A stretch of DNA of 64,000 nucleotides from Escherichia coli (GTDB lineage: Bacteria > Pseudomonadota > Gammaproteobacteria > Enterobacterales > Enterobacteriaceae): assembly GCA_902500125.1 (NCBI GenBank), contig GCA_902500125.1_4132.1; one strand, written 5' to 3'. The position numbers and the translations under genes are program-made. Below, piece by piece: positions 28,757-56,884 of this stretch (positions are counted from its first letter, which is position 1; the number at the start of each line of letters is the position of its first letter). The notes below the pieces were generated by a model. That model made no database searches. It was not told where the DNA came from and was given only the letters and a program-made list of their open reading frames with translations.

Positions 28757-28969
28757 ATGAAAACTATGAACATTCATCAGTACTACTTGGATATTCTCCC
28801 TAAAGATGTACAGTTCATCCTTAAACAAGAATACAGTACTTTAAAAAACCTTAAAAGAACCGCACCGAATGTATTAATCCTGCACCAAGAAAATGTAGTT
28901 GATAATATTCTACAAGGTGTACCAGGAACCGAGTACTTTAACATAATAAGGCTAATTACATTACCATGA
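28757..28969 (+). CDS. family A small protein (70 aa)
   Basis: M(KTM)NIHQYYLDILP...; family alignment would favour ATG 28766. Confidence 0.6.
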   Translation: MKTMNIHQYYLDILPKDVQFILKQEYSTLKNLKRTAPNVLILHQENVVDNILQGVPGTEYFNIIRLITLP

Positions 28970-29151
28970 ATCATATATTATACTATTACCAAAATCTATC
29001 CGACAGGGACAAGTACACCCACAACTCCCATGTATGGTACTACAAACGCGGTAGTATAAGGGACAAACAACATTACTTCAGTACTGCTATAAAAGAAACA
29101 CTAACAACTAAGTACACGTACAGAGCAGTACTGAAACTTATTGATATGTAA
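28966..29151 (+). CDS. family A small protein (61 aa)
   Basis: ATGA overlap; MNHILYYYQNLS...AVLKLIDM. Confidence 0.6.
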   Translation: MNHILYYYQNLSDRDKYTHNSHVWYYKRGSIRDKQHYFSTAIKETLTTKYTYRAVLKLIDM

Positions 29152-29161
29152 AGAGAATACT

Positions 29162-29347
29162 ATGAATACATTTGAGTACTATACAAATAAACTATCTATG
29201 CCAGAAAGATCTCATCTCTATGTGTGGAGAAATGCGTATAAAAGCGGCAATAAACTTATACAAAGAAATTCCCTTACAGTGTGTACAAATTTAATTAAAG
29301 CAGAGTACCGCACATATATTGAAGTACTGAAACTAATCTCTATCTAA
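29162..29347 (+). CDS. family A small protein (61 aa)
   Basis: ORF-track TTG 29141 trimmed to ATG 29162 (AAGAGA upstream); MNTFEYYTNKLS...EVLKLISI. Confidence 0.6.
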   Translation: MNTFEYYTNKLSMPERSHLYVWRNAYKSGNKLIQRNSLTVCTNLIKAEYRTYIEVLKLISI

Positions 29348-29355
29348 GGTACTCT

Positions 29356-29535
29356 ATGCAAGAATTCTATATCTATAAACTTCAGCACAAAGATAGATAC
29401 AACTATAATAAATTCCAAAGGTACTACACAGTCGGGAACAAAAGAGATAAAAAACGATACTTTCTATCATGTACAGTAGAAGCACAAAACGAAAAGTACA
29501 CGTACAGAGAAGTACTGAAACTCATCTCTATGTAA
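29356..29535 (+). CDS. family A small protein (59 aa)
   Basis: Not in ORF track (<60 aa); MQEFYIYKLQ...EVLKLISM. Confidence 0.55.
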   Translation: MQEFYIYKLQHKDRYNYNKFQRYYTVGNKRDKKRYFLSCTVEAQNEKYTYREVLKLISM

Positions 29536-29543
29536 GGAATAAT

Positions 29544-29723
29544 ATGCAAGAATACTATATAGAACACATAAACATTAAAGACCGTTTCATGTACGACACC
29601 TTCGTGAAGTACTACAACCTGGCAACTAACAGTACTAAAAATATTAATCTCAATAGCTGCATTCATCACGCACTAACAAAAGATAATCCCTTCAGGGAAA
29701 TCCTCGCACTAGCATCTGTATAA
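29544..29723 (+). CDS. family A small protein (59 aa)
   Basis: ORF 29469 trimmed to ATG 29544 (AAGGA upstream); MQEYYIEHIN...EILALASV. Confidence 0.55.
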   Translation: MQEYYIEHINIKDRFMYDTFVKYYNLATNSTKNINLNSCIHHALTKDNPFREILALASV

Positions 29724-29733
29724 AGGAAACCAA

Positions 29734-30393
29734 ATGAAACTTAATGCACACAGCAAACAATACCTTAAGCACTTTAAGTACCTCAACAGTATTCAAGCAG
29801 AATCTATTACATCTGCATATACGTATCACCCTAATGTACTAAAGAAACGAAATAAAAAGAAAAAATCCAGAAATGTTCTCGTATCTAAGAACCTCAAATC
29901 GTACTTGAAGAAAAATAATATAGCTCTTGCTTTTATTAATATCTATCATACTGATTTAAAAGTATTGAGTACTAATACCAGCACAAAAGCACTAAAGAAT
30001 GCATCTATCTATATACACATGGATAATATCCCGTGCACTATAATTCTATCTTTCGGGAATGTATACTTCTTCGGGAATTGTAATAGCACCCATGATATCA
30101 GTACTGCACAATTCCAAATCGGCGATATGTACTGCATGGGTTCAGAAAAAATACACGATAACATGCACTTCTTCCAAAAGCAACGTACTAACGAAACTGA
30201 TACAGTACTGCAATTCCTCAAAGAACTACAAAACAAAGAATTAACACCAGAAGAAGAATTCATGTACAGTACTGTAATCGATAATCCAGAACTCTATAAA
30301 AACGCGTACAAACTAACAAAACATGTACAGGAACTTATCAGTACTGATAAGAAATTTCATAACCTCATTACGTATATTACAAACTATGTATAA
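29734..30393 (+). CDS. family C-related protein, long form with basic N-terminus (219 aa)
   Basis: AAGGA upstream; KKRNKKKKSRN N-region; TPEEEFMYSTVID resembles the EEYFQxSL motif; interrupts the family A array. Confidence 0.6.
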   Translation: MKLNAHSKQYLKHFKYLNSIQAESITSAYTYHPNVLKKRNKKKKSRNVLVSKNLKSYLKKNNIALAFINIYHTDLKVLSTNTSTKALKNASIYIHMDNIPCTIILSFGNVYFFGNCNSTHDISTAQFQIGDMYCMGSEKIHDNMHFFQKQRTNETDTVLQFLKELQNKELTPEEEFMYSTVIDNPELYKNAYKLTKHVQELISTDKKFHNLITYITNYV

Positions 30394-30571
30394 AGAATAC
30401 TACATAGAGAAACTCCCAATGTATCTCCAACACCTTCTACCAACAGAACCATTGGGTATAGAAAAAAACTACGAAAAAGACTACTTCATTCAGTGCACTA
30501 AATCCTCGATATATATTGAAGACTATAATCGAGTACTGTATCACATCCTTTTACTAATATATAGGTACTAA
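30386..30571 (+). CDS. family A small protein (61 aa)
   Basis: ORF 30323 trimmed to ATG 30386; MYKEYYIEKLP...ILLLIYRY. Confidence 0.6.
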   Translation: MYKEYYIEKLPMYLQHLLPTEPLGIEKNYEKDYFIQCTKSSIYIEDYNRVLYHILLLIYRY

Positions 30572-30572
30572 T

Positions 30573-30755
30573 ATGCACAAAGAATACTACACACAATTTC
30601 TCCCCAGCATTTTTGAACACTACGCCAGATACAAAGTCCCTATGGATAACGATTTGGCAGTACTGGGATTCAATAACTGCATAGAACGAAGTATAGAAAA
30701 TAGTAGTAGTTATGACCAGCTATATAACACTATCCTACTTATATTCAGGTACTAA
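30573..30755 (+). CDS. family A small protein (60 aa)
   Basis: TAAtATG junction; MHKEYYTQFLP...TILLIFRY. Confidence 0.65.
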   Translation: MHKEYYTQFLPSIFEHYARYKVPMDNDLAVLGFNNCIERSIENSSSYDQLYNTILLIFRY

Positions 30756-30756
30756 T

Positions 30757-30945
30757 ATGCATAAAGAATACTACACAAAATATTTCCCAATGTACCTCAG
30801 TACTAATCTATTAGATAAACCTCGCGGTATCAATGCACAAAACGATAAAGTGTACTTTACTATGTGCACTAAAGCATGTATACTAGATTTTGACAGCTAT
30901 CATCGAGTACTGTATCATACCCTGTACCTAGCTTTCGTATTCTAA
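30757..30945 (+). CDS. family A small protein (62 aa)
   Basis: ORF 30712 trimmed to ATG 30757 (TAAtATG); MHKEYYTKYFP... Confidence 0.65.
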   Translation: MHKEYYTKYFPMYLSTNLLDKPRGINAQNDKVYFTMCTKACILDFDSYHRVLYHTLYLAFVF

Positions 30946-30954
30946 AAGAACAAT

Positions 30955-31140
30955 ATGCATAAAGAATTCTACTTAAGCCATCTCGATCTAAACTCCCAAA
31001 TGCTTATACCACTAATCCCAATAGATATCAAGGATAAGAAAAATACCGAACAATTCATTTACCATACACAGTGTGCGATCACCCCAAATTACATTCCATA
31101 TGAATTGTACTACATTATCGCCCTAATATATAGGTACTAA
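30955..31140 (+). CDS. family A small protein (61 aa)
   Basis: MHKEFYLSHLD...IIALIYRY. Confidence 0.65.
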   Translation: MHKEFYLSHLDLNSQMLIPLIPIDIKDKKNTEQFIYHTQCAITPNYIPYELYYIIALIYRY

Positions 31141-31141
31141 T

Positions 31142-31327
31142 ATGCATAGAGAATACTACACACAATTTGTTAAAGGGAACTACAAACATGCCGTACCCAG
31201 AACCCCTTTAAATTCTCATGACCCAAGTACTATATTCTTGTTTAATGACGCAATACGTACAGTACTCAATACTAAAGATGAACAAGTGCAGTACGTATTC
31301 TTACTATTACTTATATACAGACACTAA
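31142..31327 (+). CDS. family A small protein (61 aa)
   Basis: TAAtATG; MHREYYTQFVK...LLLLIYRH. Confidence 0.65.
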   Translation: MHREYYTQFVKGNYKHAVPRTPLNSHDPSTIFLFNDAIRTVLNTKDEQVQYVFLLLLIYRH

Positions 31328-31332
31328 CTAAT

Positions 31333-31542
31333 ATGAATAAAGAACATAAAGAATACTACTCCAAACACCTCAGCCCCTCAGAACAAATGTTTCTAAGGAC
31401 TACTCCACCTTTAAGTACTAATACATTTTTCGGCAGAGTATGCTACAATAATTGTATTCAAATGACTTTAAACGCAAACGAAGATGGTAACAGTACTAAC
31501 CTGTACTCAGGTATCATAGGTATACTATTCCTGTATGAATAA
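31333..31542 (+). CDS. family A small protein (69 aa)
   Basis: MNKEHKEYYSKHLS...IGILFLYE. Confidence 0.65.
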   Translation: MNKEHKEYYSKHLSPSEQMFLRTTPPLSTNTFFGRVCYNNCIQMTLNANEDGNSTNLYSGIIGILFLYE

Positions 31543-31723
31543 TTACAAAGACTTCTATTTGAATACACTACCTACTGTACTTTCTCTAAGTGCTCAATGT
31601 AAAATCCCGCTGGATAATGCTTACGCCAGATATAGCTATTCCATAACTGTTAATCGATGTATAGAGAATCATTGCAGTACTAACCAGTACTATAACATAA
31701 TCCTACTTATATTCAGGTACTAA
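31535..31723 (+). CDS. family A small protein (62 aa)
   Basis: 8-nt overlap; MNNYKDFYLNTLP...IILLIFRY. Confidence 0.65.
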   Translation: MNNYKDFYLNTLPTVLSLSAQCKIPLDNAYARYSYSITVNRCIENHCSTNQYYNIILLIFRY

Positions 31724-31724
31724 T

Positions 31725-31907
31725 ATGAATAAAGAACATAAAGAATTCTATATACGAAAACTAACATTCGTCCCCGTAAGAATATATAAAGAATGCGACC
31801 CAAGATTATACCTATGGCACTTCAATGAGTGCATAAAAGATTCTATATACCATAAGAACTATAAAGAACAATTGTGCTCAGTACTAACACTAGTACTATC
31901 ATATTAA
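31725..31907 (+). CDS. family A small protein (60 aa)
   Basis: TAAtATG; MNKEHKEFYIRKLT...VLTLVLSY. Confidence 0.65.
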   Translation: MNKEHKEFYIRKLTFVPVRIYKECDPRLYLWHFNECIKDSIYHKNYKEQLCSVLTLVLSY

Positions 31908-31922
31908 TTAATAGAGAATACT

Positions 31923-32114
31923 ATGTATAAAAACTTCTATATAAGTAAACTAAAAGAAAATGAACAAGTATGGATTAGATCTATAATTCCACTGGCATTT
32001 AATAGATATGCATTTAACAGATGTACCGAGATTGCTATAGACCCTTATAATATTAAAGAGAATGTACAGTATAATCAGTACTACTATATCTTAATGCTTA
32101 TATATAGAAAGTAA
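31923..32114 (+). CDS. family A small protein (63 aa)
   Basis: AGAGAA upstream; MYKNFYISKLK...ILMLIYRK; last member. Confidence 0.65.
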   Translation: MYKNFYISKLKENEQVWIRSIIPLAFNRYAFNRCTEIAIDPYNIKENVQYNQYYYILMLIYRK

Positions 32115-32130
32115 TTAAACACATAGAGAC

Positions 32131-32222
32131 AGGGGAAGCTCCTAGTGAACAACCTTTATGTACAGGCGAATTGTTAAAATTCAGCCTGGACAAATGCGAT
32201 CACTAGGATTCTCCCCAGGCTA
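32131..32222. repeat. interleaved inverted repeats (A-B-A'-B')
   Basis: A GGGGAAGCTCCTAGTGA 32132-32148 / A' TCACTAGGATTCTCCCC 32200-32216; B AGCCTGG 32183-32189 / B' CCAGGCT 32215-32221. Confidence 0.45.
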
Positions 32223-32290
32223 AACCCCGTAATCATAGGTAGTCATAAGTAATCATATATAAACATTTATATGAGCACCGTAGAATCACA

Positions 32291-32388
32291 GAATGATTAT
32301 ATATGATTCAGTACTGATTAGTATAGACAAGATTGCTCAAGAATGCACGGAAATGTGTGTGAATGATTATATATGATTCAGTACTGAT
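32291..32388. repeat. 28-bp direct repeat pair
   Basis: GAATGATTATATATGATTCAGTACTGAT at 32291-32318 and 32361-32388. Confidence 0.8.
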
Positions 32389-32674
32389 ATGCCACTAAGT
32401 AGGCAGAGGAAGTCTGCCGTACTTTGTAGTTTCCAAGCTCCTTTTCCATTTTGCAAATTACATCAAATGTAATCAAAAGTAATCACACAATGATTAGTAC
32501 TGAATTATTACTTTCACCTTAATTACAATTACCCTTTTACCCTTCGGGGTAAAATTCCATTACCCCTTGAGGCTCCAGCAAAAAGTTGGTTAGTACTCCA
32601 TCCTAAATCTCGATCCTAAAAATTTTGGAGTACCTATGAAATAAAAGTTGGATCTTCGAAAGTTGAAATTTACG

Positions 32675-32704
32675 TTGGGACGTTTATGATTTGTGGGATA
32701 TAAT
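32675..32704 (+). promoter_or_regulatory. possible promoter (weak -35)
   Basis: TTGGGA 32675, 18 nt, TATAAT 32699; same layout as 6022-6051. Confidence 0.35.
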
Positions 32705-32762
32705 GATGTTTGTAGTCGGGTAGTTCTCAAGAATATCAGTACTGAATAATGAAAGAAAGCTA

Positions 32763-32790
32763 TTGACATTATGATTCAGTACTGTATAAT
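32763..32790 (+). promoter_or_regulatory. sigma70-like promoter with no downstream ORF
   Basis: TTGACA 32763-32768, 16 nt (CAGTACTG), TATAAT 32785-32790, GTTCTACATAGAGAG start region; no SD or ORF follows. Confidence 0.55.
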
Positions 32791-32976
32791 GTTCTACATA
32801 GAGAGATGAGTTGCCGCAAACAATTCATTCACTCTACCTCCTGTCGTGAGACAGTACTGAAAGGATAGTTCCTCCTATGGGTGGTACATCTTTTTATAAC
32901 CTCTTTTTTCGTAATATAAACAGTACTGATATTAACAGAATGGTGTCAGTACTGATTTTAATCTAAAGCATTATGC

Positions 32977-32995
32977 CACCAGCTTGTGCTGGTGG
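32977..32995. other. hairpin made of Chi and its complement
   Basis: CCACCAGC-ttgt-GCTGGTGG; + strand Chi at 32988-32995. Confidence 0.8.
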
Positions 32996-33192
32996 ATTCC
33001 CTCTAACAGTATTCAGTACTACATGATGGTCTTCATCCTCCTAGGGTAACATAGTGAGGGCTATGATGGCAGTACTGAATACTCCCTTTCAAAAGATAGA
33101 TCTATGGTATAGTACTGACGGATTTTGGGTGTAGTTACCCTGGGTGGATTTTGGACGTAGATATGTCTAGCCCTCCAGAAGTCTGGAAGTAA

Positions 33193-33328
33193 AGATGGCT
33201 ATCCATCTAGACGGCTAAACGGCTAGATTTCTGGATGGCTGGATGGCTAGATTTCTGGATGGCTGGATGGCTAGACGTTTGGACGGCTAAACGGCTAGAT
33301 GGTTACACGTCTGGAAGTATAGACGGCT
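33193..33328. repeat. iteron-like array of the octamer RRAYGGCT (10-11 copies), with 24-bp tandem unit x2
   Basis: AGATGGCT 33193, AGACGGCT 33209, AAACGGCT 33217, GGATGGCT 33233/33241/33257/33265, GGACGGCT 33281, AAACGGCT 33289, AGACGGCT 33321; flanked by GTCTGGAAGTA 33181 and 33309. Confidence 0.8.
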
Positions 33329-33489
33329 AAATCAAAATTTTATTTTGTTTTTTCCAATAGTTCCCCTACCGCGTGGGGATAGTTTCCCCGCAGTATCTGG
33401 AGTTAGATTTTTCTGAATCTGGAATCATTATCTTATAAACTGGGGGCAATGTCAACGGCCTGGACGGATATTTTTAAAAATTTTTTCAG

Positions 33490-33580
33490 TACTGAATTTT
33501 GGGCGTAACTATGCACCCGGTGGGCTTGAGTCTTTCTCGACTTGATGGAACTATTATACAGTACTGAAAAAATAAAGCAA
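33490..33580 (-). promoter_or_regulatory. U element: promoter + conserved transcribed core
   Basis: Minus strand TTGCTT (33580-33575), 16 nt, TATAAT (33558-33553), then ...ATCAAGTCGAGAAAGACTCAAGCCCACCGGGTGC (core 33525-33513). Confidence 0.45.
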
Positions 33581-33639
33581 TACCCTGGAAGCAAAAAAAT
33601 TTTAATTAATTTGCTTGCTATCCTGGGCCGGACTATGGT

Positions 33640-33702
33640 ACTATATTTCAGTACTGAGAAAGTGCGTTTGCCTGCTAGGGTGCGGGAGTGTATCCTTTTT
33701 TT
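33640..33702 (+). promoter_or_regulatory. U element, degenerate copy (core + T7)
   Basis: CTAGGGTGCGGGAGTGTATCC 33675-33695 followed by T7; no good promoter; converges on next element. Confidence 0.3.
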
Positions 33703-33711
33703 ATATCTTGA

Positions 33712-33796
33712 ATTTTGGGCGTAATTCCGCACCCCCTGGGGTTTCCGCTTTCTCGCGTCTATGTAGTAATTATACGCTTTTTCAGGATCAAGTCAA
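33712..33796 (-). promoter_or_regulatory. U element: promoter + conserved transcribed core
   Basis: Minus strand TTGACT (33796-33791), 16 nt, TATAAT (33774-33769), TACTACATAGACGCGAGAAAGCGGAAACCCCAGGGGGTGC. Confidence 0.45.
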
Positions 33797-33949
33797 TACC
33801 TAAAAACAAAATAATTGAAAATAATTTAACGCGTTTAAACGGCCCGTAAAGCCCTGGAATGATTAGAATGGTGCAAATGTATAGCTTAGGTGTATTAATG
33901 CGTTAGAATGCGTCTGAGGCCGTTTTACGGGGTATAGGGATGATTTAGT

Positions 33950-34115
33950 GGATTGATTCAGTACTGAATAATAGTACTCCTATATAGAAAGATAGTTCCC
34001 CTGGATTGATTCAGTACTGAATAATAGTACTCCTATATAGAAAGATAGTTCCCCTGGATGGTTGCAGTACTGAATGATAGTACTGAATAATAGTTCCCCT
34101 ATATAGAAAGAAAAC
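33950..34115. repeat. 53-bp tandem repeat, 2 exact copies + 1 diverged
   Basis: GGATTGATTCAGTACTGAATAATAGTACTCCTATATAGAAAGATAGTTCCCCT at 33950-34002 and 34003-34055; variant 34056-34115. Confidence 0.85.
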
Positions 34116-34142
34116 TATTTTAAAAGTATTTGTAGAAAGTAC

Positions 34143-34202
34143 TTGCAAACTAAGTTTAACGGCGTATAATGTTTTACATCGAGAGCGGGAACACTTCCCG
34201 CT
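34143..34202 (+). promoter_or_regulatory. PeSL-like cassette (early-type promoter + stem-loop)
   Basis: -35 TTGCAA 34143; -10 TATAAT 34165 + GTTTTACATC; hairpin 34184-34202; ATG 34226. Confidence 0.7.
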
Positions 34203-34225
34203 ACATATTACGAGAGATTAAAACG

Positions 34226-34588
34226 ATGGCGACTCAAATCACTAAAATTATTGCTAACCTGGTTAACTTTCGCGACGAGATGAAAGATCTTCCGGCAGAA
34301 ACGGTAAAAATTCACATTTCAGCTTATCGGGAACTTATTGCAATGTTACCGCTTAAGCGTGAACAATACGCCGCGACCGTGATGCTTGATGCGATGATCC
34401 ATAAGATGATCGCCAGTGATTTAACGATGGTTTATCAGTATATGGGCGAAAATTTCGCGGTGTATAGTAAACCAGTACCAGGAATGGAAAGTACAGAAGT
34501 ATTACACGGTTTAAATTTAAAACAAGATGCATGGGATAATATGCCTCGTTTCCTGGTATGGGCTGACAGTGGCAAGATTTACGAATAA
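34226..34588 (+). CDS. hypothetical protein (120 aa)
   Basis: ORF 34169 trimmed: its first 19 codons read through the -10 and hairpin; ATG 34226 follows GAGAGA. Confidence 0.65.
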   Translation: MATQITKIIANLVNFRDEMKDLPAETVKIHISAYRELIAMLPLKREQYAATVMLDAMIHKMIASDLTMVYQYMGENFAVYSKPVPGMESTEVLHGLNLKQDAWDNMPRFLVWADSGKIYE

Positions 34589-39472: not shown

Positions 39473-39552
39473 TGTTTATCGTTTACCAGGCCACCAGCAC
39501 CGCCTAGAAACGATTCTAACGTATTAAACTGTTTATCTGATGCATTGCCCTA

Positions 39553-39560
39553 GCTGGTGG
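39553..39560 (+). other. intergenic Chi octamer
   Basis: GCTGGTGG; its complement CCACCAGC lies at 39491-39498. Confidence 0.8.
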
Positions 39561-39625
39561 CGTTAAAGTCGTTAGAATGCGATTGAGTGCGTTTAAAGTA
39601 TTTTGCAAAAAGTAATAAAAAGTAC

Positions 39626-43560: not shown

Positions 43561-43587
43561 GCCCACTGGTCAACGCTGGTGGGCTTT
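43561..43587 (+). terminator. terminator hairpin containing Chi
   Basis: GCCCAC...GTGGGC + TTT; 3' arm includes GCTGGTGG 43575-43582. Confidence 0.5.
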
Positions 43588-43658
43588 AATCCTTTACCCT
43601 ATACAATGCCAGTACTAAACCGTTTATCTCGTTAGAATGCGTTACAGGACGTTTGACA

Positions 43659-44507: not shown

Positions 44508-44864
44508 ATGGGAATACAACATATCACGCGTACTACTGACAATGGAGAGATCACTGGTTATCAGGTACAGGGCAAAGTAGCACAATTGCAGTACTGGTTT
44601 GTTAAACGTGGAATCATTGCACCGGATCTTGATTATGACCGTGTAGCGTTTATTGATTCTCTTTATGTTGATCCTGATAGTCGGGGCAATGGTGAAGGTA
44701 ACGAATTAATGAATGCCTTTATCGATGCCGCCGATGATTCAGATTGTATCATCTTAGAATGCGATACGGGAGAAGATAACGCCTTTAATCTTAAAGAATG
44801 GTACGAAGGTTTCGGATTCGAGGTATTGATAGATAGTGAATATCCTATCATGATTTTATCATAG
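44508..44864 (+). CDS. GNAT-family N-acetyltransferase (118 aa)
   Basis: LYVDPDSRGNGEGNELMNAF (motif A-like R-x-x-G-x-G) and WYEGFGFE tail; short for a GNAT. Confidence 0.55.
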   Translation: MGIQHITRTTDNGEITGYQVQGKVAQLQYWFVKRGIIAPDLDYDRVAFIDSLYVDPDSRGNGEGNELMNAFIDAADDSDCIILECDTGEDNAFNLKEWYEGFGFEVLIDSEYPIMILS

Positions 44865-47983: not shown

Positions 47984-48226
47984 ATGATTACTTTAGAAAA
48001 ACGTATCAAAGAAACTACATCGCTGGTGGAATTGTTAACAGTACTCAAATGTAAAACAACACCATTCAGCACGCCGGACTTTATTAATATGGTTGATGTT
48101 AATGGTCGCTATCGTATCACGGTCGAACAAGGAGCGGCGAAAGTATTCAGTACTAAAAACACGAAGGAAGTGATCCACGCCGTTAATGTTAAAAAAGTAG
48201 TTGCCATTGATAGTAAAGTACTGTAA
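47984..48226 (+). CDS. hypothetical protein (80 aa)
   Basis: ORF track; GGGGAAAA upstream; contains Chi at 48022. Confidence 0.6.
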   Translation: MITLEKRIKETTSLVELLTVLKCKTTPFSTPDFINMVDVNGRYRITVEQGAAKVFSTKNTKEVIHAVNVKKVVAIDSKVL

Positions 48227-48257
48227 TATAGTTTCATTAACTCAAGGAGAACATGCA

Positions 48258-48842
48258 ATGCGTAATTATACTAAATTCATCCGTACACTGTCAGAAATGG
48301 AAACCAACAAAGAGATCCTTTCAGCTTGTCGGTTAGCTGGCCTGGAGATCATCGGTGCTGGTTCTTCCCGTATAGTTTTCGCTTTAAATGATCGGTTAGT
48401 GATTAAGGTCGCGAATTGTGATGCGGGTGTAGAACAAAATGAAACTGAATGTAAGGTATGGAATTTTTTAGACTATGACCGCCCTCAGTTGAAACAGTAC
48501 TTTGCAAAGGTGCATATGCATTTATGCGATCCTGATAATATGTTTATCGTTATGGATCGGTTGAGTACTGCAAGCAAAGGTAGTGTGAAGCACGTAAACG
48601 CGTGCAATGAATTAAAGTACAATATTAAACGTAATGCAATCGAACGCCAGCACCGCTTTGCTGATGCACTACAACACGTCGATGATACATTATCAACACT
48701 AACGATAAGAGATATCAGAAAACAGAATATCGGCCAGGATCGTAATGGCCTTATTAAAGTACTTGATTACGGTTTAACCTGCAATATCTGGAATCAGTAC
48801 TATAAAAAGCGTGATGTGGCAGCAAGTAAGGTAACACGATAA
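48258..48842 (+). CDS. protein kinase-like fold protein (194 aa)
   Basis: Trimmed to ATG 48258 after AAGGAG; G-loop IIGAGSSRIVF, LVIKVA lysine, IRDIRKQNIG catalytic-loop-like, VLDYGL (DFG-like). Confidence 0.55.
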   Translation: MRNYTKFIRTLSEMETNKEILSACRLAGLEIIGAGSSRIVFALNDRLVIKVANCDAGVEQNETECKVWNFLDYDRPQLKQYFAKVHMHLCDPDNMFIVMDRLSTASKGSVKHVNACNELKYNIKRNAIERQHRFADALQHVDDTLSTLTIRDIRKQNIGQDRNGLIKVLDYGLTCNIWNQYYKKRDVAASKVTR

Positions 48843-52938: not shown

Positions 52939-52967
52939 TGCGTAAAAGGATTTAGTACTGAATCATA

Positions 52968-53030
52968 AAAAAGTCAAGGCATTTTTAAAAATCAGCGTTA
53001 AAAAAATGCATAGGTAATCCCTTGACTTTT
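52968..53030. repeat. 11-bp inverted repeat pair
   Basis: AAAAGTCAAGG ... CCTTGACTTTT separated by about 40 nt in a non-coding gap. Confidence 0.6.
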
Positions 53031-53129
53031 ATGAATAAAAAGGGATTGGACTATGGCAAAATGCGTAGGGGGCTTAACTGCGGGTAACCTTAGCGACTTC
53101 GATAAAGGGGTATTACTAATAAAATGTTA

Positions 53130-53157
53130 TTGACTTTTTATACGAATCGTATATTAT
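53130..53157 (+). promoter_or_regulatory. sigma70-like promoter for the family B array
   Basis: TTGACT 53130-53135, 16 nt, TATTAT 53152-53157. Confidence 0.5.
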
Positions 53158-53187
53158 AGGATTGATATTATTTTTAATGGAGTCCCT

Positions 53188-53385
53188 ATGCGTATTTTAA
53201 CTCAAGCAGAACATCACGAAAGACTTATCAATAACATGGCATATATCCTACATATGTCACATATCCGTGGTATTGCATATAAGCGTGAATTGGTTATGGC
53301 ACTATTCATTGGAACTAACTTTCAGGAAAGGTATGTCAAGGATTGGATTTCATATTTAATTGAAGATATAACGGGTAAACTATGA
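53188..53385 (+). CDS. family B small protein (65 aa)
   Basis: GGAG SD; motif FIGTNFQERYVKDWISYLIEDI. Confidence 0.65.
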   Translation: MRILTQAEHHERLINNMAYILHMSHIRGIAYKRELVMALFIGTNFQERYVKDWISYLIEDITGKL

Positions 53386-53590
53386 AAATTATCACACAAT
53401 TTCAACTATATAATCTTATGATCGAATATAGAAAGAATATATATATATACCAGATGAGTTATCTAGGGATGAAAAAAAGTTTATTCTATCGGAGTGGTGG
53501 ATGATGGCTGGACTGGGAACCAACTTCCAAGAAAGTTTTGTTAATGATTGGATTTTACATTTAATAAAAGATATAAAGAGTAAACAATGA
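53382..53590 (+). pseudogene. family B member disrupted at an (AT)7 run
   Basis: ATG 53382 (ATGA-coupled) gives MKIITQFQLYNLMIEYRKNIYIY. The conserved C-half (..SEWWMMAGLGTNFQESFVNDWILHLIKDI) is in another frame. The switch lies in ATATATATATATAT 53436-53449. Confidence 0.55.
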
Positions 53591-53796
53591 AAACTATAAC
53601 ACGAACCCAATCATTAGGTCTTATCTTGAAATACATGGACTTAATGTTGGATATCAGCAAAGACCTTCCTAAAACTGAAATCCAAGTTGCAAGAGCAGAG
53701 ATCCGCATGTTGGCTGTACTGAACACAAACCATCAGGAAGATTATGTTGAAGAATGGATTCGATTTTTAATAGAAGATATAAAGAGTAAATTATGA
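53587..53796 (+). CDS. family B small protein (69 aa)
   Basis: ATGA overlap; VLNTNHQEDYVEEWIRFLIEDI. Confidence 0.65.
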   Translation: MKTITRTQSLGLILKYMDLMLDISKDLPKTEIQVARAEIRMLAVLNTNHQEDYVEEWIRFLIEDIKSKL

Positions 53797-54008
53797 TTAT
53801 TATAGAAAACTCATATCAATATACTGAACGCATCGCTGCCAGACAACTTGAAATCCTCATAATATACGAAGAGACTTCTGATTTAAACTTAGCCGAGGTA
53901 TTGGAAAATGATATACTATTGGGTGCATTCTTAGGAACAGACTATCAGAAGTATTATGAGGAAAAGTATTTGTCATCTCTTGAGAAATATATCAGGAGCA
54001 AATTATGA
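53793..54008 (+). CDS. family B small protein (71 aa)
   Basis: ATGA overlap; FLGTDYQKYYEEKYL. Confidence 0.65.
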   Translation: MIIIENSYQYTERIAARQLEILIIYEETSDLNLAEVLENDILLGAFLGTDYQKYYEEKYLSSLEKYIRSKL

Positions 54009-54217
54009 TTTTTTTAACACCAGAAGAATATAAGAAACGTTTCAATTCCGCACAGGGTGAAATCTTACTTATATACCTTTCAAATGCAGACCTTAACTTA
54101 TCAAGGGTATTAGAAAAAGATTTACTTATGGGTGCATTCCTTGATACAGACTTTCAGGTGTATTATGTAGGGGAATACTTAATTGCACTTCAGAATTATA
54201 TCAGGAGTAAACTATGA
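54005..54217 (+). CDS. family B small protein (70 aa)
   Basis: ATGA overlap; FLDTDFQVYYVGEYL. Confidence 0.65.
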   Translation: MIFLTPEEYKKRFNSAQGEILLIYLSNADLNLSRVLEKDLLMGAFLDTDFQVYYVGEYLIALQNYIRSKL

Positions 54218-54441
54218 AACATTTAAGTAATTCCGAGAAGAATAAAATTATCATTGCTGCAATAAACAAATATTTTACACTTCCTCACAAAGAAGGTTTA
54301 TGTATAAGAGAACACAGGATAAACACCACCGATATACGCATGATGGCTGTACTGGGGACGAACTTCCAGGAAGAGTATGTTATTGCACACATAGTTGCAC
54401 TCAAGAATTACATTATGGACAAATGTAATGAACATCATTAA
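54214..54441 (+). CDS. family B small protein (75 aa)
   Basis: ATGA overlap; VLGTNFQEEYVIAHI. Confidence 0.65.
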   Translation: MKHLSNSEKNKIIIAAINKYFTLPHKEGLCIREHRINTTDIRMMAVLGTNFQEEYVIAHIVALKNYIMDKCNEHH

Positions 54442-54652
54442 TAACTTTGAATACGAGGCCCGTGCTAAGAGTGCCAGAAAAAAAGAGAACACCATTTACT
54501 TCACTATGATGTACTTACAATGGACTGAAATTGAAGAAAAGGTTGCTGAAGTATGGATGTTGGAATTCATGGGGACGCAGTATCAGAATAGGTTTGCGGG
54601 TGAGTATATCAATGTTCTTATGAAACAAATAGAAAGAAAGGAAAAGAACTAA
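54428..54652 (+). CDS. family B small protein (74 aa)
   Basis: ORF 54395 trimmed to ATG 54428; FMGTQYQNRFAGEYI. Confidence 0.6.
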   Translation: MNIINNFEYEARAKSARKKENTIYFTMMYLQWTEIEEKVAEVWMLEFMGTQYQNRFAGEYINVLMKQIERKEKN

Positions 54653-54810
54653 TGGTTTTCATTAACATATCTGACCAACTCGATACTAAACTAGAAGTCG
54701 AGCAGAGTGAGGGATGGATGTTGTACTTTCTTGGAACTTCTCATCAGAATTTTTATATCCATGAACACATAGTTGCACTCACAAATCTAATAAGGGATAA
54801 ATGTAAATGA
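54652..54810 (+). CDS. family B small protein, short (52 aa)
   Basis: Not in ORF track; TAATG junction; FLGTSHQNFYIHEHI. Confidence 0.55.
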   Translation: MVFINISDQLDTKLEVEQSEGWMLYFLGTSHQNFYIHEHIVALTNLIRDKCK

Positions 54811-55064
54811 AACACTTGACGAACGATGAATATTCACTTAGAATTCGAAAGCTCACCCCAGAAGCAAGAGTAATCTACGATGACGATGCACTTTCATGGA
54901 ACGAGATGAAAGTTAAAGTTCATGAGCTATGGTTGCTGTACTTTGTGGGAACCCAATATCAAGAGAAATATTGTACCGATTATCTTGAACAACTAATGGA
55001 TCTTATACAGATAAAACTAAATGAACGAATTGTGGAAAAATATGAAAACTTTATCAAGCACTGA
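54807..55064 (+). CDS. family B small protein (85 aa)
   Basis: ATGA overlap; FVGTQYQEKYCTDYL. Confidence 0.65.
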   Translation: MKHLTNDEYSLRIRKLTPEARVIYDDDALSWNEMKVKVHELWLLYFVGTQYQEKYCTDYLEQLMDLIQIKLNERIVEKYENFIKH

Positions 55065-55293
55065 GTATCAAACTGCCCTCTTCTCCCTTCTAAACACCCT
55101 CCGCACGAACAATAAACTTTATAATTCCCGTGAAGCTGATATCGTCAACGCTGATGTATATCTTAATAAATTCATAGGGACTAACTATCAAGAACTGTTC
55201 ACTCTACGATATATCGCTGCATTGAGAAACGAAATATCAGATAAAACCCGTCAAGCCAGAAGAGAATGGAATAAACAATGCGACAAAGACTAA
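55042..55293 (+). CDS. family B small protein (83 aa)
   Basis: ORF 55021 trimmed to ATG 55042 (either is possible); FIGTNYQELFTLRYI. Confidence 0.55.
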   Translation: MKTLSSTEYQTALFSLLNTLRTNNKLYNSREADIVNADVYLNKFIGTNYQELFTLRYIAALRNEISDKTRQARREWNKQCDKD

Positions 55294-55514
55294 ATCACAA
55301 AATGTATTGTAAACTATTGCAGACACTGGCACAGAAACACTATGACACTGTATCTGAAATATTACCCTATGATATCATGCGTTTAATTCATAGTGAGGCA
55401 GAGATGCTTGTACTGATGACAGGCACTGATAAAAAAGCAATTGCCAAATCAATAGATATGTTCATCGAAGCACAATGTCAACACATTAGAACCGAGATAT
55501 GGAGACGAGAATGA
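55278..55514 (+). CDS. family B-related small protein, divergent (78 aa)
   Basis: Position and size fit the array; motif degraded (LMTGTDKKAIAKSI). Confidence 0.55.
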   Translation: MRQRLNHKMYCKLLQTLAQKHYDTVSEILPYDIMRLIHSEAEMLVLMTGTDKKAIAKSIDMFIEAQCQHIRTEIWRRE

Positions 55515-55726
55515 TAACACTAAATGAGTTTCAGTATCATTGGAGGTTACAAACTATCAAATCAAAAGTGTATAGTATTGTGTTAAACAAATCTATTGCA
55601 CAAGAGGACAAATGTGTTATAATAGCTGAAATGAAGTTGGGTGCTTTCGTAGGGACAAACTATCAAAACATCTACACTGACGTATTGTTAAGTGCCTTAC
55701 GTAACAAGGTGGTATCCAAAATATGA
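55511..55726 (+). CDS. family B small protein (71 aa)
   Basis: ATG 55511 is 6 nt after GGAG and ATGA-coupled (ORF track 55499); FVGTNYQNIYTDVLL. Confidence 0.6.
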   Translation: MITLNEFQYHWRLQTIKSKVYSIVLNKSIAQEDKCVIIAEMKLGAFVGTNYQNIYTDVLLSALRNKVVSKI

Positions 55727-55941
55727 GAAATTTACAAGGCTTTGAATACATCAGACTCCTGAAAACATGCACCAGCAGAAGGAAAATCTTATCAAGCGAT
55801 AAGAGCATCCAAGCTAACCTTAAGCACGCACTAGTAACTGAACTCTATGTAGGTGCACTCTTAGGCACAAACTATCAACAAATGTATGTGGATCTATGGA
55901 TTGACGCTCTACAGAAAGAGGTTAAAAGTAAATGCAAATGA
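55723..55941 (+). CDS. family B small protein (72 aa)
   Basis: ATGA overlap; LLGTNYQQMYVDLWI. Confidence 0.65.
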   Translation: MRNLQGFEYIRLLKTCTSRRKILSSDKSIQANLKHALVTELYVGALLGTNYQQMYVDLWIDALQKEVKSKCK

Positions 55942-56150
55942 TTAATTTAAGTAAAGATGAATATTATGAACGTCTTGCAAAAACTTATCCAGCACGTAAG
56001 GCCGTTTATGATAGTCACATTATTGAACGCTCAAAGAAGTTGATTGTAGTAAATGAGATTAAGATGCTTTCAGTCTTAGGAACAAACTATCAAGAGAATG
56101 CTGTACTGTTGTTAATTGATGCCCTCCAGAGAGAGATACAAAGTAAATGA
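55932..56150 (+). CDS. family B small protein (72 aa)
   Basis: ATGCAAATGA junction (alternative ATG 55938); VLGTNYQENAVLLLI. Confidence 0.6.
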   Translation: MQMINLSKDEYYERLAKTYPARKAVYDSHIIERSKKLIVVNEIKMLSVLGTNYQENAVLLLIDALQREIQSK

Positions 56151-56395
56151 TTCATTTATCTTACCATGATTATCAAAAACGTTTAAATGCATCAAGGGAT
56201 ATAAGGATTCAAATCTTCAATAACAAAAAATTGAAACCTGACACCAGAAGAATCAAAATGATAGAAGCAGAGTTATGCAACTTCCTGGGGACGAACTATC
56301 AGGCAGGTAAGGTAAAAAACTATCTTAGAGAACTAATGATTTGTATCGAAAATAAATGTGAGGTTGATGAACATGCAAATGATCAATTTAAGTAA
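56147..56395 (+). CDS. family B small protein (82 aa)
   Basis: ATGA overlap; FLGTNYQAGKVKNYL. Confidence 0.65.
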   Translation: MIHLSYHDYQKRLNASRDIRIQIFNNKKLKPDTRRIKMIEAELCNFLGTNYQAGKVKNYLRELMICIENKCEVDEHANDQFK

Positions 56396-56636
56396 AGATG
56401 AATATACCGAGCGTATGACAAAAATTACGCACAAACGTAATACAATCTATCACAACCCAGAAATTCAACACAGTAAGAAAATGATTATGATGCGTGAGTT
56501 AAAGATGGGTGTATTCTTGGGAACAAACTATCAAGAGCCAGAAGTAAATCGATTAATTGCTGAGTTACTATTGGAAATCAAAGGTAAGCTGTACTTTCAT
56601 CAAATGACCCAGCCACTGAGGTGTACTGATCGATGA
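56373..56636 (+). CDS. family B small protein (87 aa)
   Basis: ORF 56358 trimmed to ATG 56373 (MQMINLSKDEY, as in 55932); FLGTNYQEPEVNRLI. Confidence 0.6.
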   Translation: MQMINLSKDEYTERMTKITHKRNTIYHNPEIQHSKKMIMMRELKMGVFLGTNYQEPEVNRLIAELLLEIKGKLYFHQMTQPLRCTDR

Positions 56637-56884
56637 ATGCGATGAATATTGTGAATAACATCAGATTAGCAGAAAGATTTGATAGAATTGGGGAAGCACT
56701 GAGAAGATACGATAAAGAATATGGTCATTTGAGCTTTTCTATAGAAAAGAGATATGAACTTGAAGCAGAGTTTAAAATGCAGAGTCTCTTAGGCACACAG
56801 TATCAAAACCAATATATTCAAACTTGGATTGATTGTTTAATCCAGACAATTTACGTAAGAAACATTAAATGCAAAATGAAATGA
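56633..56884 (+). CDS. family B small protein (83 aa)
   Basis: ATGA overlap; LLGTQYQNQYIQTWI. Confidence 0.65.
   Translation: MNAMNIVNNIRLAERFDRIGEALRRYDKEYGHLSFSIEKRYELEAEFKMQSLLGTQYQNQYIQTWIDCLIQTIYVRNIKCKMK

Follow-up and report, generated by a model that had tools for sequence, protein, structure and literature searches.

The analysed window, 64 kb of an Asteriusvirus genome (a jumbo coliphage like PBECO4, 121Q and G17), contains at positions 32115 to 34140 what is very probably the boundary between the unique genome and a direct terminal repeat (DTR) of about 20.7 kb, including a cis-acting leader. The layout is 283 bp of unique DNA, followed by the physical genome end and an untranslated DTR leader of 1.8 kb. 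The initial annotation had proposed a replication origin, a packaging or terminus region, or a regulatory and small-RNA hub. The second of these was strongly supported, since position 32398 is where both the virion DNA end and the DTR start map. The terminus position has already been published for relatives; the anatomy of the leader and the Chi-rich DTR appear to be undescribed. The alignment set comprised eight Asteriusviruses (the window phage and seven relatives), and promoters were identified as sigma-70 consensus matches. The features are:

32115–32397, no strand: final 283 bp of unique sequence ahead of the DTR ('overrun'), alignment of the eight Asteriusviruses
32380–32400, plus strand: end-forming (cut-site) motif AGTACTGATATGCCACTA^AGT, seven record ends and cross-genus junctions
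32398–53090, plus strand: direct terminal repeat, 20,693 bp here, relatives' record ends and exact repeat of G17
32402–32418, plus strand: hairpin-capable GGCAGAGGAAGTCTGCC, 4 nt from the DNA end, identical in six of six relatives covering the stretch
32592–32633, plus strand: best-conserved leader element AGTACTCCATCCTAAATCTCGATCCTAAAAATTTTGGAGTAC with inverted arms GTACTCCA/TGGAGTAC, alignment
32763–32790, plus strand: inward promoter TTGACA-16-TATAAT, 12/12 consensus positions, sigma-70 consensus match
32976–32995, no strand: Chi palindrome CCACCAGC-ttgt-GCTGGTGG, exact Chi octamers
33177–33328, plus strand: octamer array of 19 tandem RGAYGGCT units, repeat analysis
33329–33353, plus strand: AT-rich tract, 25 bp, about 90 % A+T
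33350–33391, plus strand: conserved box TTTTCCAATAGTTCCCCTACCGCGTGGGGATAGTTTCCCCGC after the AT-rich tract, sequence comparison
33427–33455, minus strand: outward promoter TTGACA-17-GATAAT, sigma-70 consensus match
33553–33580, minus strand: outward promoter TTGCTT-16-TATAAT, sigma-70 consensus match
33769–33796, minus strand: outward promoter TTGACT-16-TATAAT, sigma-70 consensus match
33901–33927, plus strand: box CGTTAGAATGCGTCTGAGGCCGTTTTA, agreeing in 28 of 32 positions with T5 9346–9376, where the iss region starts
33949–34084, plus strand: 53-bp tandem repeat, 2.6 copies, 95 % matches, repeat analysis
34143–34588, plus strand: first early promoter-hairpin-RBS cassette and first repeat-region gene, promoter and ORF scans

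The interval 32115–34225 is bounded by the last family-A ORF (31923–32114) and by the first repeat-region gene (ATG at 34226). It had been called the longest ORF-free stretch of a genome with gaps of less than 100 bp elsewhere. In the 60-kb G17 annotation the corresponding gap of 1893 bp was indeed 4.4 times longer than the next one (426 bp), but the stated gap size did not hold for the cassette region, in which the curated gaps of G17 range from about 55 to 430 bp. Between 32114 and 34226 only four ORFs of 59–99 aa were present, all without codon-position bias and broken by a frameshift or stop in at least two of the seven aligned relatives. A conserved ORF was not found in the 2-kb stretch among these relatives, nor was a tRNA, and a search of Rfam 15 was negative both for the window at gathering score and for 31900–34400 at E ≤ 1. 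Automatic annotations place three to eight spurious proteins here. The region was present in all 42 of 42 matching records and its architecture recurs in other genera, thus it is not freely deleted. The cassette region was GC-richer than the family-A array, as noted before (0.388 versus 0.329). The first repeat-region gene (34226–34588, 120 aa) had no Pfam family.

One record end in seven independent full-length relatives coincides with window position 32398. The first bases of CRJP21, E9.1, fEgEco12, vB_Ec-M-J, BF17 and ELP-22 map there together with the last base of G17; the first base of G17 and the last base of fEgEco12 map to 53090. G17 carries an exact repeat of 20,668 bp (positions 1–20668 equal 350150–370817 with 100 % identity), and repeat features are annotated in the records of vB_Ec-M-J, CBB, Kae01 and Muenster. 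Because the relatives' record ends map to 32398 and 53090, this interval was assigned as the DTR of about 20.7 kb. By comparison with these records, the virion DNA has the repeat at either end, and the window contains a single, collapsed copy. We infer the terminus of the window phage from relatives that are 88–96 % identical. For fEgEco12, terminus and DTR were determined with PhageTerm and restriction digests (PMC13070987), for Sharanji with PhageTerm (PMC11895373), and the G17 repeat has coverage evidence (PMC6563267).

The cut lies between 32397 and 32398. A comparison of the ends yielded the motif AGTACT-N5-20-CCRCTA^WRT in Asteriusvirus, RaK2/Muenster, CBB and fENko-Kae01, and it is conserved among genera with independently determined ends. 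The junction AGTACTgatatGCCACTA^AGT is identical in RaK2/Muenster, and CBB and fENko-Kae01 have CCGCTA^TAT. The right DTR boundary (AACCT^TAG, 53090) does not share the left cut motif. Among the relatives, EJP2 is not aligned across the hairpin-capable sequence at 32402–32418. The overrun is variable and indel-rich among relatives and contains AGTACT palindromes. It also holds a direct repeat of 28 bp (copies at 32291–32318 and 32361–32388). Direct repeats had been noted for the stretch and are present, but the 28-bp unit is not conserved: in six of seven relatives a deletion of 20 bp interrupts the second copy, and according to the alignment it is absent from EJP2.

The leader inside the DTR showed a conservation of 0.8–0.98 in the alignment of the eight Asteriusviruses, above that of the flanking genes. 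Leaders of 1.1–1.8 kb with the same order of elements are present in Muenster/RaK2, CBB, Yen9-04 and Kae01. The AGTACTCCATCCTAAATCTCGATCCTAAAAATTTTGGAGTAC element also occurs 86–130 bp from the fENko-Kae01 terminus, and a blast search matched it to Kae01/Munch. The octamer array described initially was recovered with 19 units in perfect 8-bp register; its units are near-palindromes of AGACGTCT. The copy number differs among relatives by indels that are multiples of 8 bp, and the single-stranded array folds with z = -5.4. A 241-bp search with the array matched almost exclusively Rak2-like jumbo phages or T5-like phages of Vibrio and Aeromonas. In terminus-oriented records of several Rak2-like genera the array lies about 650–810 bp from the left end. 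A few matches were in other phages, phiKT and vB_VorS-PVo5. The TTTTCCAATAGTTCCCCTACCGCGTGGGGATAGTTTCCCCGC box is at the equivalent place in CBB, Yen9-04, Muenster, RaK2 and Kae01, and the CGTTAGAATGCGTCTGAGGCCGTTTTA box has further direct copies at about 39566 and 43626. The 53-bp tandem repeats, likewise reported before, vary in copy number among relatives, carry two AGTACT sites per unit and lie directly upstream of the first early promoter (TTGCAA-16-TATAAT, 34143–34170). The estimate of about 22 AGTACT sites in 32115–34140 was exact. Over the whole window, 278 sites were counted where 20.8 were expected, with densities per kb of 10.9 in the leader, 6.9 in the whole repeat, 8.1 in the family-A array and 1.6–3.1 elsewhere. 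The enrichment is not special to the 2-kb stretch. Because it extends over the whole repeat and not only over the end, AGTACT may have a transcriptional role.

Promoters in both directions without genes behind them had been proposed, and one on the plus strand and three on the minus strand, all of sigma-70 type, were found. In all four, hexamers and spacing are kept in relatives even with diverged spacers. The plus-strand promoter, 365 bp away from the DNA end, has no ORF downstream; its hexamers and the CAGTACTG spacer are retained in JNE01/EJP2 despite diverged flanks. The predicted transcript (about 32797–32960) forms four hairpins (fold z = -4.3), of which the 5' hairpin is kept via compensatory changes (9 pairs), but the consensus fold has a covariation term of about zero. 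In Muenster, Kae01, CBB and Yen9-04, similar matches to inward promoters, found by visual inspection of the sequences rather than by a scan, lie 250–390 bp from the end. On the minus strand, the -10 hexamer of the promoter 33455→33427 lies within a GGAATCATTATC motif similar to one of the repeats in T5 Repeat Region 3; in 121Q its spacer is fully diverged with hexamers and spacing kept. The promoter 33580→33553 belongs to a repeated unit spaced by 216 bp (33504–33557 and 33720–33773), and 33796→33769 has a conserved ATAGACGCGAGAAAGCGG... segment downstream. RaK2, K64-1 and Muenster contain a block 71–75 % similar to that of about 33553–33775, and reading of the Kae01 sequence showed a comparable unit there.

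The Chi hairpin of the initial annotation was confirmed as CCACCAGCttgtGCTGGTGG, 579 bp from the left DNA end. Its minus-strand copy (32976–32983) faces the end at 32398, the right orientation for RecBCD entering there. The hairpin is intact in six of eight Asteriusviruses, lost in EJP2 and damaged in CMSTMSU. The same hairpin lies 484–503 bp from the fENko-Kae01 terminus, so that two genera have it roughly 0.5 kb from the end; the leaders of RaK2, CBB and Yen9-04 lack it. Chi sites number 16 in the window against 0.63 expected. The DTR contains 12 of them, ten on the plus strand and oriented against RecBCD entering at 53090, and the enrichment of about 50–100-fold is limited to the DTR. G17 and Kae01 show the same pattern with no Chi in the flanking unique DNA. 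Chi regulates RecBCD, and Chi-mediated protection of linear or rolling-circle DNA is known and was reportedly described by Dabert et al. (1992); the Chi content of phages was reportedly treated by Bobay et al. (2013). The sites here share with known Chi the exact octamer GCTGGTGG, the correct orientation to the nearest end and a strong over-representation, but the enrichment is confined to the DTR and combined with a two-way palindrome about 0.5 kb from the end. No earlier description of a two-way Chi palindrome with a Chi-rich terminal repeat was found in a literature search. Since the DTR is about 50–100-fold enriched in correctly oriented Chi in two genera, the sequences suggest that these phages exploit RecBCD rather than only block it.

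Parts of this organization are present in other phage ends. The left end of T7 reportedly has a terminal repeat of 160 bp and arrays of short repeats (Dunn and Studier 1983; genome-entry work of Molineux), and its host RNA polymerase promoters A1–A3 are located at about 500–750 bp. Both phages have a fixed DNA end and, adjoining the terminal repeat, arrays of short direct repeats. In both, strong sigma-70 promoters point inward at a distance of a few hundred bp from the end, and the genes downstream are all co-oriented with entry from it. In contrast to the 160 bp of T7 the repeat here spans 20.7 kb, and three promoters also point outward; phage lineage and terminase are unrelated. Transcription-driven entry would be conjectural for the phage analysed here. 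The cos region of lambda, composed of the nicking site cosN and the binding sites cosB/cosQ, likewise combines a sequence-specific cut with a one-sided cluster of repeated motifs of the protein-binding type, but forms cohesive ends of 12 nt instead of long direct repeats. The cosB sites are closer to cosN than the array is to the cut here, and this distance of 780 bp was counted against the packaging-platform view of the leader given below. SPO1 has a terminal redundancy of 13 kb with a host-takeover module. It resembles the DTR in being long and packed with many small early genes that each have strong promoters of host type and terminators, but has a Gram-positive host and unrelated sequences; to our knowledge no comparable leader has been described for SPO1.

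Among described systems, the untranslated Repeat Region 3, or injection-stop region, which straddles the inner boundary of the T5 terminal repeat, comes closest. Both are large untranslated regions rich in repeats and palindromes that straddle one boundary of a long DTR, and both DTRs are rich in early or pre-early genes. The untranslated region here extends over 283 bp outside and 1828 bp inside the DTR; the overrun of T5 into unique DNA is 270 bp. Local alignment of the Asteriusvirus leader with T5 Repeat Region 3 scored 36, compared to 25.1 ± 2.1 for shuffled sequences (0 of 200 reached 36). Scores were 51 versus 25.4 ± 2.3 for the Muenster leader and 34 versus 24.6 ± 2.0 for that of Kae01 (0 of 100 shuffles each). 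The common blocks are short, 22–35 nt. T5-like phages of Vibrio and Aeromonas carry the same 8-bp array in a syntenic place, whereas T5 itself has neither octamer array nor Chi hairpin. T5 repeats GTGCAAATCCGACA nine times where CAGTACTG palindromes stand here.

These likenesses allow a different view of the region, an injection stop of the T5 type. The 53090-end DTR would enter first and transfer would pause when the leader reaches the envelope, so that expression of about 60 small repeat-region genes would precede the entry of the remainder of the 350-kb genome in a second step. Consistent with this are the leader straddling the inner DTR boundary with an overrun close to that of T5, the box held in common with the T5 Repeat Region 3 iss region, T5 Repeat Region 3 repeats of the GAGAATCATTATCATT type in Muenster and Kae01, and the ten Chi sites against RecBCD entering at 53090. 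The array common to Vibrio and Aeromonas T5-like phages also fits; in Pontus it lies beside GTGCAAATCCGACA-type repeats and in AhSzq-1 about 3 kb from the A1/A2 genes. However, the T5 iss has about eight paired DnaA boxes in IRD'/IRC', and DnaA boxes (TTWTNCACA) are absent from 32115–34225 and at chance level in the window (12 versus 12.5 expected). The T5 boxes are inverted copies, the three copies here (33901, about 39566 and about 43626) are direct and all on the plus strand, and an IRD'spacerIRC' with an inverted partner several kb away was not found. Pfam detected nothing like A1/A2 among the ten largest repeat-region ORFs, and no DTR ORF exceeds 213 aa. The octamer array is missing from T5 itself, for whose Repeat Region 3 an iss function is hypothetical too. 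Seen from the end at 32398, every repeat-region gene points inward, as does the consensus promoter 365 bp away; a T7-like entry from the opposite end fits this better. We know of no two-step injection in jumbo phages and regard an injection stop as unlikely. A wider proposal, which we consider speculative and rather doubtful, is a cross-family end module of T5-like siphoviruses and Rak2-like jumbo myoviruses with long terminal repeats, serving two-step delivery and recruitment of RecBCD and Chi. The 8-bp AGACGTCT-type array, the GAGAATCATTATCATT-type repeats and the box matching the T5 iss start may be its parts.

Alternatively, the main role of the stretch could be the production of non-coding RNAs from the four promoters for the regulation of early genes or host functions, with promoters convergent across Chi hairpin and array and with CAGTACTG palindromes as putative operators of a phage repressor. 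Four promoter-like sites conserved in hexamers and spacing without ORFs argue for it, as do the predicted structured plus transcript with its compensatory changes, the minus-strand unit kept in RaK2, K64-1 and Muenster, and the overlap of AGTACT with the -35 or spacer of early promoters. Of the regulatory and small-RNA hub, the promoters and the structured leader thus stood, but an Rfam match was lacking, the covariation term is about zero and 32800–32950 is one of the less well conserved segments of the leader. The terminus model, too, would predict promoters near DNA ends, compare the left end of T7, and the RNA reading would leave fixed DNA end, array and Chi unexplained. As the main role it is a tentative possibility, compatible with a terminus and not exclusive of it. 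A replication origin, with the array as iterons, the AT-rich tract as unwinding element and minus-strand transcription from the 33455 promoter priming by an R-loop like T4 oriF/oriG, is very unlikely. The 19 direct repeats adjoin the AT-rich tract, the promoter points into both, the GC skew flips its sign at about 32 kb of the window with plus-strand genes on both sides, and Rak2-like phages have a T4-type replisome (PMC5259590). But of the proposed origin only the tract beside the array and the local skew change speak for it. With a period of exactly 8 bp over 19 units, successive sites face different sides of the helix, unlike known iterons; helix-phased direct repeats (about 10–11 or 21–22 bp) were not found in the array. 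DnaA boxes are lacking as stated, and no initiator gene is nearby. The skew flip coincides with the junction of unique and repeat DNA and with the compositionally odd family-A array. The same array lies near the ends of many long-repeat phages, unrelated T5-like ones included, and the origins of T5 are located in the genome centre, according to work cited by bioRxiv 10.1101/866236. Decayed genes or a neutral spacer, i.e., a remnant of lost cassettes with chance motifs, would agree with the variable copy numbers of 53-bp and octamer repeats and the indel-rich unique side. This explanation is already contradicted and extremely improbable: the leader is better conserved than neighbouring genes, the order of its elements is kept in genera with about 29 % ANI (PMC13070987), and AGTACT and Chi counts are far above shuffles.

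As the chromosome end with its leader, the region would act at several stages. During packaging, terminase would cut concatemers at the conserved motif AGTACT-N5-20-CCRCTA^, and the leader just inside the cut is a probable cis-acting platform for end formation and packaging, with CAGTACTG palindromes, the GTACTCCA...TGGAGTAC element and the 19-unit array as putative parts; we know of no protein that binds the octamer array or the palindromes. After DNA entry, sigma-70 RNA polymerase of the host would use the one inward and three outward leader promoters alongside about 24 early promoter cassettes of the DTR. The Chi palindrome would stop RecBCD before any gene and load RecA, the ten plus-strand Chi sites of the DTR would do likewise for the opposite end, and the two DTR copies could then recombine, circularising the genome or forming concatemers.

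With this assignment, what was an unexplained "hub" can be defined as a jumbo-phage chromosome end with its probable cis-acting leader. In practice, it tells where the genome starts and how far the repeat extends in the many relatives whose deposited records are collapsed or opened at an arbitrary point, and it marks sequence best left intact in the engineering of these therapy-candidate phages. If the end module proposed above existed, it would control cutting, holding and release of the repeat-bearing end, phages of 350 kb would deliver a 20-kb DTR in a separate first step like T5, and the host RecBCD-Chi system would be recruited, not inhibited, with RecBCD protecting and recombining the phage ends. 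The cross-genus cut-site motif is a testable handle on how terminase makes direct repeats of 20 kb, the DTR enriched in correctly oriented Chi is a second, and the array and blocks shared with the still-unproven T5 injection-stop region offer another for long-repeat phages.

Forty-two phage records matched the gene-free stretch at 32115-34140, 33 of them with at least 80 % query cover at 88-96 % identity (megablast). Nearly all were Asteriusvirus jumbo coliphages of about 350 kb (PBECO4, 121Q, G17, phAPEC6, fEgEco12 and others); IMG/VR scans with a DNA 23-mer and with the first repeat-region protein returned the 121Q contig alone, besides irrelevant weak matches. The curated G17 record shows an annotated gap of 1893 bp at the homologous place, flanked by an array of ~60-aa genes and by a small-gene block with predicted terminators. 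In records above ~360 kb the region lies 18-20 kb from one end. G17 carries an exact direct repeat of 20,668 bp at both ends; window position 32398 corresponds to the last base of the G17 record and 53090 to the first. The first base of six further full-length records (CRJP21, E9.1, fEgEco12, vB_Ec-M-J, BF17, ELP-22) corresponds to 32398, all six start with AGTAGGCAGAGGAAGTCTGCC, and the last base of fEgEco12 falls on 53090. The ends have an experimental basis: repeats of 20,993 bp in fEgEco12 (PhageTerm and restriction digests, PMC13070987) and of 20,668 bp in Sharanji (PhageTerm, PMC11895373) have been reported, and that of G17 is backed by read coverage (PMC6563267). Because the record ends of relatives map to 32398 and 53090, the window is a collapsed representation of a genome with a direct terminal repeat (DTR); the DNA end was placed through these relatives. 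On this placement the unique genome ends at 32397, the DTR spans 32398-53090 and the unique genome starts at 53091. The presumed hub is made up of 283 bp of unique sequence, followed by the physical DNA end and an untranslated leader of 1.8 kb. The stretch that the initial annotation had called a GC-richer cassette region corresponds to the DTR (GC content 0.388 versus 0.32-0.35 in the flanks). For relatives, the terminus and the length of the repeat had been published before, and on that point the region is explained and ordinary.

The absence of genes was upheld: four open reading frames (59-99 aa) each carry a frameshift or stop in two or more of the seven relatives aligned, and their variable sites lack a third-position excess. 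The 99-aa frame annotated as g614 in fEgEco12 and all other frames of the region were rejected as genes, being broken in relatives and free of codon-position bias. Public records (OR699182, OR699282, PQ330092, PP886230, PV611058 and others) place three to eight automatic 'hypothetical proteins' within the non-coding leader, the fEgEco12 annotation places g614 there, and the public entries of many relatives omit the second copy of the repeat or start at an arbitrary point. Rfam gave no match at gathering score in the window and none at E ≤ 1 in the region; tRNA and tmRNA genes were not detected. The region is indeed the longest gap, 4.4 times the next largest, but the claim that gaps elsewhere stay below 100 bp failed, those in the cassette region being typically 55-430 bp. 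The Chi palindrome, the octamer array (19 units in perfect 8-bp register), the 53-bp tandem repeat and promoter-like sites on both strands were all recovered, and AGTACT occurs exactly 22 times, where about 22 had been noted.

Order of the leader elements, starting at the DNA end (window coordinates)
32402-32418: hairpin-capable GGCAGAGGAAGTCTGCC
32592-32633: most conserved block, AGTACTCCATCC...TGGAGTAC, also 86-130 bp from the end of phage fENko-Kae01 (Kae01)
32763-32790: predicted inward sigma-70 promoter, 12 of 12 consensus bases
32976-32995: Chi palindrome
33177-33328: octamer array
after the octamer array: AT-rich tract and box TTTTCCAATAGTTCCCCTACCGCG...
33455, 33580, 33796: three predicted outward promoters
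33901-33927: box similar to the beginning of the T5 injection-stop (iss) region
33949-34084: 53-bp tandem repeat
34143: first early promoter-hairpin-RBS cassette
34226: first gene

Across seven relatives, identity to the window at 33300-33950 was 0.87-0.98, that of the first gene 0.84-0.87 and that of the unique side much lower; left of ~32600 the values are lowered by two sequences that do not cover this part. Promoter hexamers and their spacing are kept despite diverged spacers, e.g., in 121Q at 33455 and in JNE01 and EJP2 at 32763, and indels in the octamer array (16, 24 or 40 bp) comprise whole units. The predicted plus-strand transcript folds with z = -4.3 against shuffles; its 5' hairpin is held by compensatory changes, with an overall covariation term of about zero. 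The left ends of Muenster/RaK2, CBB, Yen9-04 and Kae01 carry gene-free leaders of 1.1-1.8 kb with elements in matching order.

The unique/repeat junctions were aligned for phages with independently determined ends, and the cut-site sequence is kept beyond Asteriusvirus.

Junctions at the left repeat boundary (^, cut) and source of the end
This window: AGTACTgatatGCCACTA^AGTAGG
RaK2: AGTACTgatatGCCACTA^AGTCCG; cut position transferred from the related phage Muenster, whose end was determined by PhageTerm
CBB: AGTACTgttgaccccttCCGCTA^TATCCG; read depth and PFGE (PMC5259590)
fENko-Kae01: AGTACTtacccccttCCGCTA^TATCTT; PhageTerm

Within Asteriusvirus the bases just inside the cut are identical in all six aligned relatives covering that stretch, and the unique side is variable with many indels. 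Immediately beyond the cut, on the unique side, a 28-bp direct repeat was dismissed as a conserved signal, because in six of seven aligned relatives a 20-bp deletion breaks the second copy. Comparison of the left with the right boundary (AACCT^TAG) revealed no common motif. The right boundary at 53090 falls within a 250-bp gap (52939-53187), with a promoter-like TTGACT-16-TATTAT at 53130-53157 just beyond the boundary. A second array of overlapping 65-90-aa reading frames follows at 53188-55726, where AGTACT is entirely missing for ~4 kb.

Sensitive blastn searches of 50,697 records with the region, and again with an Aeromonas phage array, found the octamer array in two groups only, besides a few matches such as phiKT and vB_VorS-PVo5. 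The first group comprises Rak2-like jumbo phages, in which the array lies 650-810 bp from position 1 of terminus-oriented records (CBB, Serratia BF, pEa_SNUABM_19/44, Xanthomonas XbC2 and several Asteriusviruses). The second is formed by T5-like Demerecviridae of Vibrio and Aeromonas. AhSzq-1 carries the array in a 950-bp gap ~3 kb from the A1/A2 genes, and in Pontus it directly adjoins GTGCAAATCCGACA repeats. T5 itself yielded no octamer array; nine copies of the 14-mer GTGCAAATCCGACA straddle the point where the T5 left terminal repeat ends, as many as the "DRD" repeats known from that phage. In these T5-like phages a position near the repeat end is suggested by synteny; the records of the Vibrio members are flagged circular and start at differing positions relative to the array. 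The units are near-palindromes of AGACGTCT, and a single strand folds with z = -5.4 against shuffles. Together with the CAGTACTG palindromes, the array may provide a platform for the terminase. In leaders lacking the array, GAGAATGATTCTCATT-type repeats occupy its position (Muenster 780-900 and 1060-1100; RaK2 1820-1950; Kae01 700-800); they closely match repeats of T5 Repeat Region 3, with 33 of 35 bases identical in Muenster.

The clustering of AGTACT was confirmed, but as a property of the hub it was downgraded: the window holds 278 copies versus 21 expected, and the motif is dense in the whole repeat (32398-53090, 6.9/kb) and in the family-A array, the plus-strand ~60-aa paralogues to the left (8.1/kb), as well as in the leader (10.9/kb). 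It is equally dense (8-10/kb) in the Muenster, CBB and Kae01 leaders and absent from the T5 left terminal repeat. One recurrent context is AAAGTACTTGCAA, which overlaps the -35 element of ~24 early promoters; the other is the palindrome (T)TCAGTACTGA(A). Examples of the motif lie at 34138, 34598 and 37287, and 53000-57000 has none. The Aeromonas phage AhSzq-1 has AGTACTaATTCGAca repeats in place of the GTGCAAATCCGACA of T5. Between 34131 and 40023, a 61-91-nt early cassette occurs eleven times, each time ahead of a small gene and in the order AAAGTACTTGCAA-N-GCGTATAATgttTTACATC, GGGGAA..TTCCCC hairpin and RBS.

The window holds 16 copies of Chi (GCTGGTGG) versus 0.63 expected, at sites in mutually unrelated contexts, coding and non-coding. 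The DTR holds 12 copies, ten of them on the plus strand, where ~0.1 per strand is expected, and Chi is its commonest GC-rich octamer. This amounts to a ~50-100-fold over-representation, confined to the terminal repeat. G17 has ten copies in the DTR and none in the 9.3-kb flank on each side (18.6 kb of unique DNA). Kae01, at ~29 % ANI to fEgEco12 (PMC13070987), has 14 in its DTR (12 on the plus strand) and none in the next 20 kb. The same Chi palindrome lies 484-503 bp from the Kae01 end; it is missing from the RaK2, CBB and Yen9-04 leaders. Among eight Asteriusviruses the hairpin is intact in six, damaged in CMSTMSU and lost from EJP2; EJP2 and JNE01 have one extra plus-strand Chi ~100 bp upstream. 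In PBECO4 the 4-nt loop (equivalent to 32984-32987) is flipped from TTGT to ACAA, as expected of a cruciform or hairpin-mediated flip. RecBCD recognizes Chi when arriving from its 3' side. Therefore, the plus-strand copies would act on RecBCD entering at 53090, and the minus-strand arm of the palindrome, 579 bp from the 32398 end and ahead of any gene, on RecBCD entering there. Chi would thereby arrest RecBCD and load RecA for recombination between the repeat copies.

T5 Repeat Region 3, the annotated injection stop signal of that phage, is likewise untranslated, 1.2 kb long and rich in repeats and palindromes; the overrun past the terminal repeat is 270 bp in T5 (left repeat end) and 283 bp here. 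The best local alignment with the leader scored 36 on AAYGCGTTAGAATGCG..GG.CGTTTTA, against 25.1 ± 2.1 for shuffles, none of 200 reaching 36. The Muenster leader scored 51 (25.4 ± 2.3) on a GAGAATCATTATCATT-type repeat and that of Kae01 34, a value reached by none of 100 shuffles in either case; the similarities are short. The region contains no DnaA box, and across the window their number is that expected by chance. The iss-like boxes here (33901, ~39566, ~43626) are direct repeats, not inverted as in T5, and A1/A2-like proteins were not found by Pfam among the ten largest repeat-region proteins, which gave one GNAT acetyltransferase and one sub-threshold kinase match only. These are encoded at 44508-44864 (E = 4e-9) and 48201-48842, respectively; a putative protein kinase is annotated in the Kae01 repeat. 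Of the iss-like boxes (CGTTAGAATGCG...CGTTT), the second lies within 39491-39600, flanked by Chi in both orientations (39491, minus strand; 39553, plus strand), and the third within 43575-43654, 55 bp past a plus-strand Chi. As blocks are shared while the defining T5 features fail, the leader is treated as a probable functional analogue and distant relative of Repeat Region 3, but not taken as a demonstrated injection stop signal. That DNA entry halts here as in T5 would fit the position, the common sequences and the polarity of Chi; the orientation of genes and promoters conflicts with it and suits a T7-like entry from the 32398 end. A T5-type stop seems unlikely.

Of the functions initially proposed, the terminus was borne out. 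A replication origin has an AT-rich tract and a local skew change in its favour, nothing else, and is quite improbable. The family-A array (28966-32114), whose GC skew is strongly negative (-0.16 to -0.22) with a positive AT skew, opposite to the plus-strand repeat genes, contributes to the skew switch seen at 32 kb. An RNA or regulatory role is plausible as a tentative suggestion, compatible with a function at the repeat boundary, and a neutral spacer is contradicted by the conservation. The literature consulted gave no description of the conserved leader architecture, the cut-site motif common to several genera, the Chi-saturated repeat or the links with T5-like phages at their iss region. 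Most probably, the region is the DTR boundary, with the fixed DNA end, shown by relatives, and a cis-acting leader that would serve the formation of the end and the first minutes of infection.
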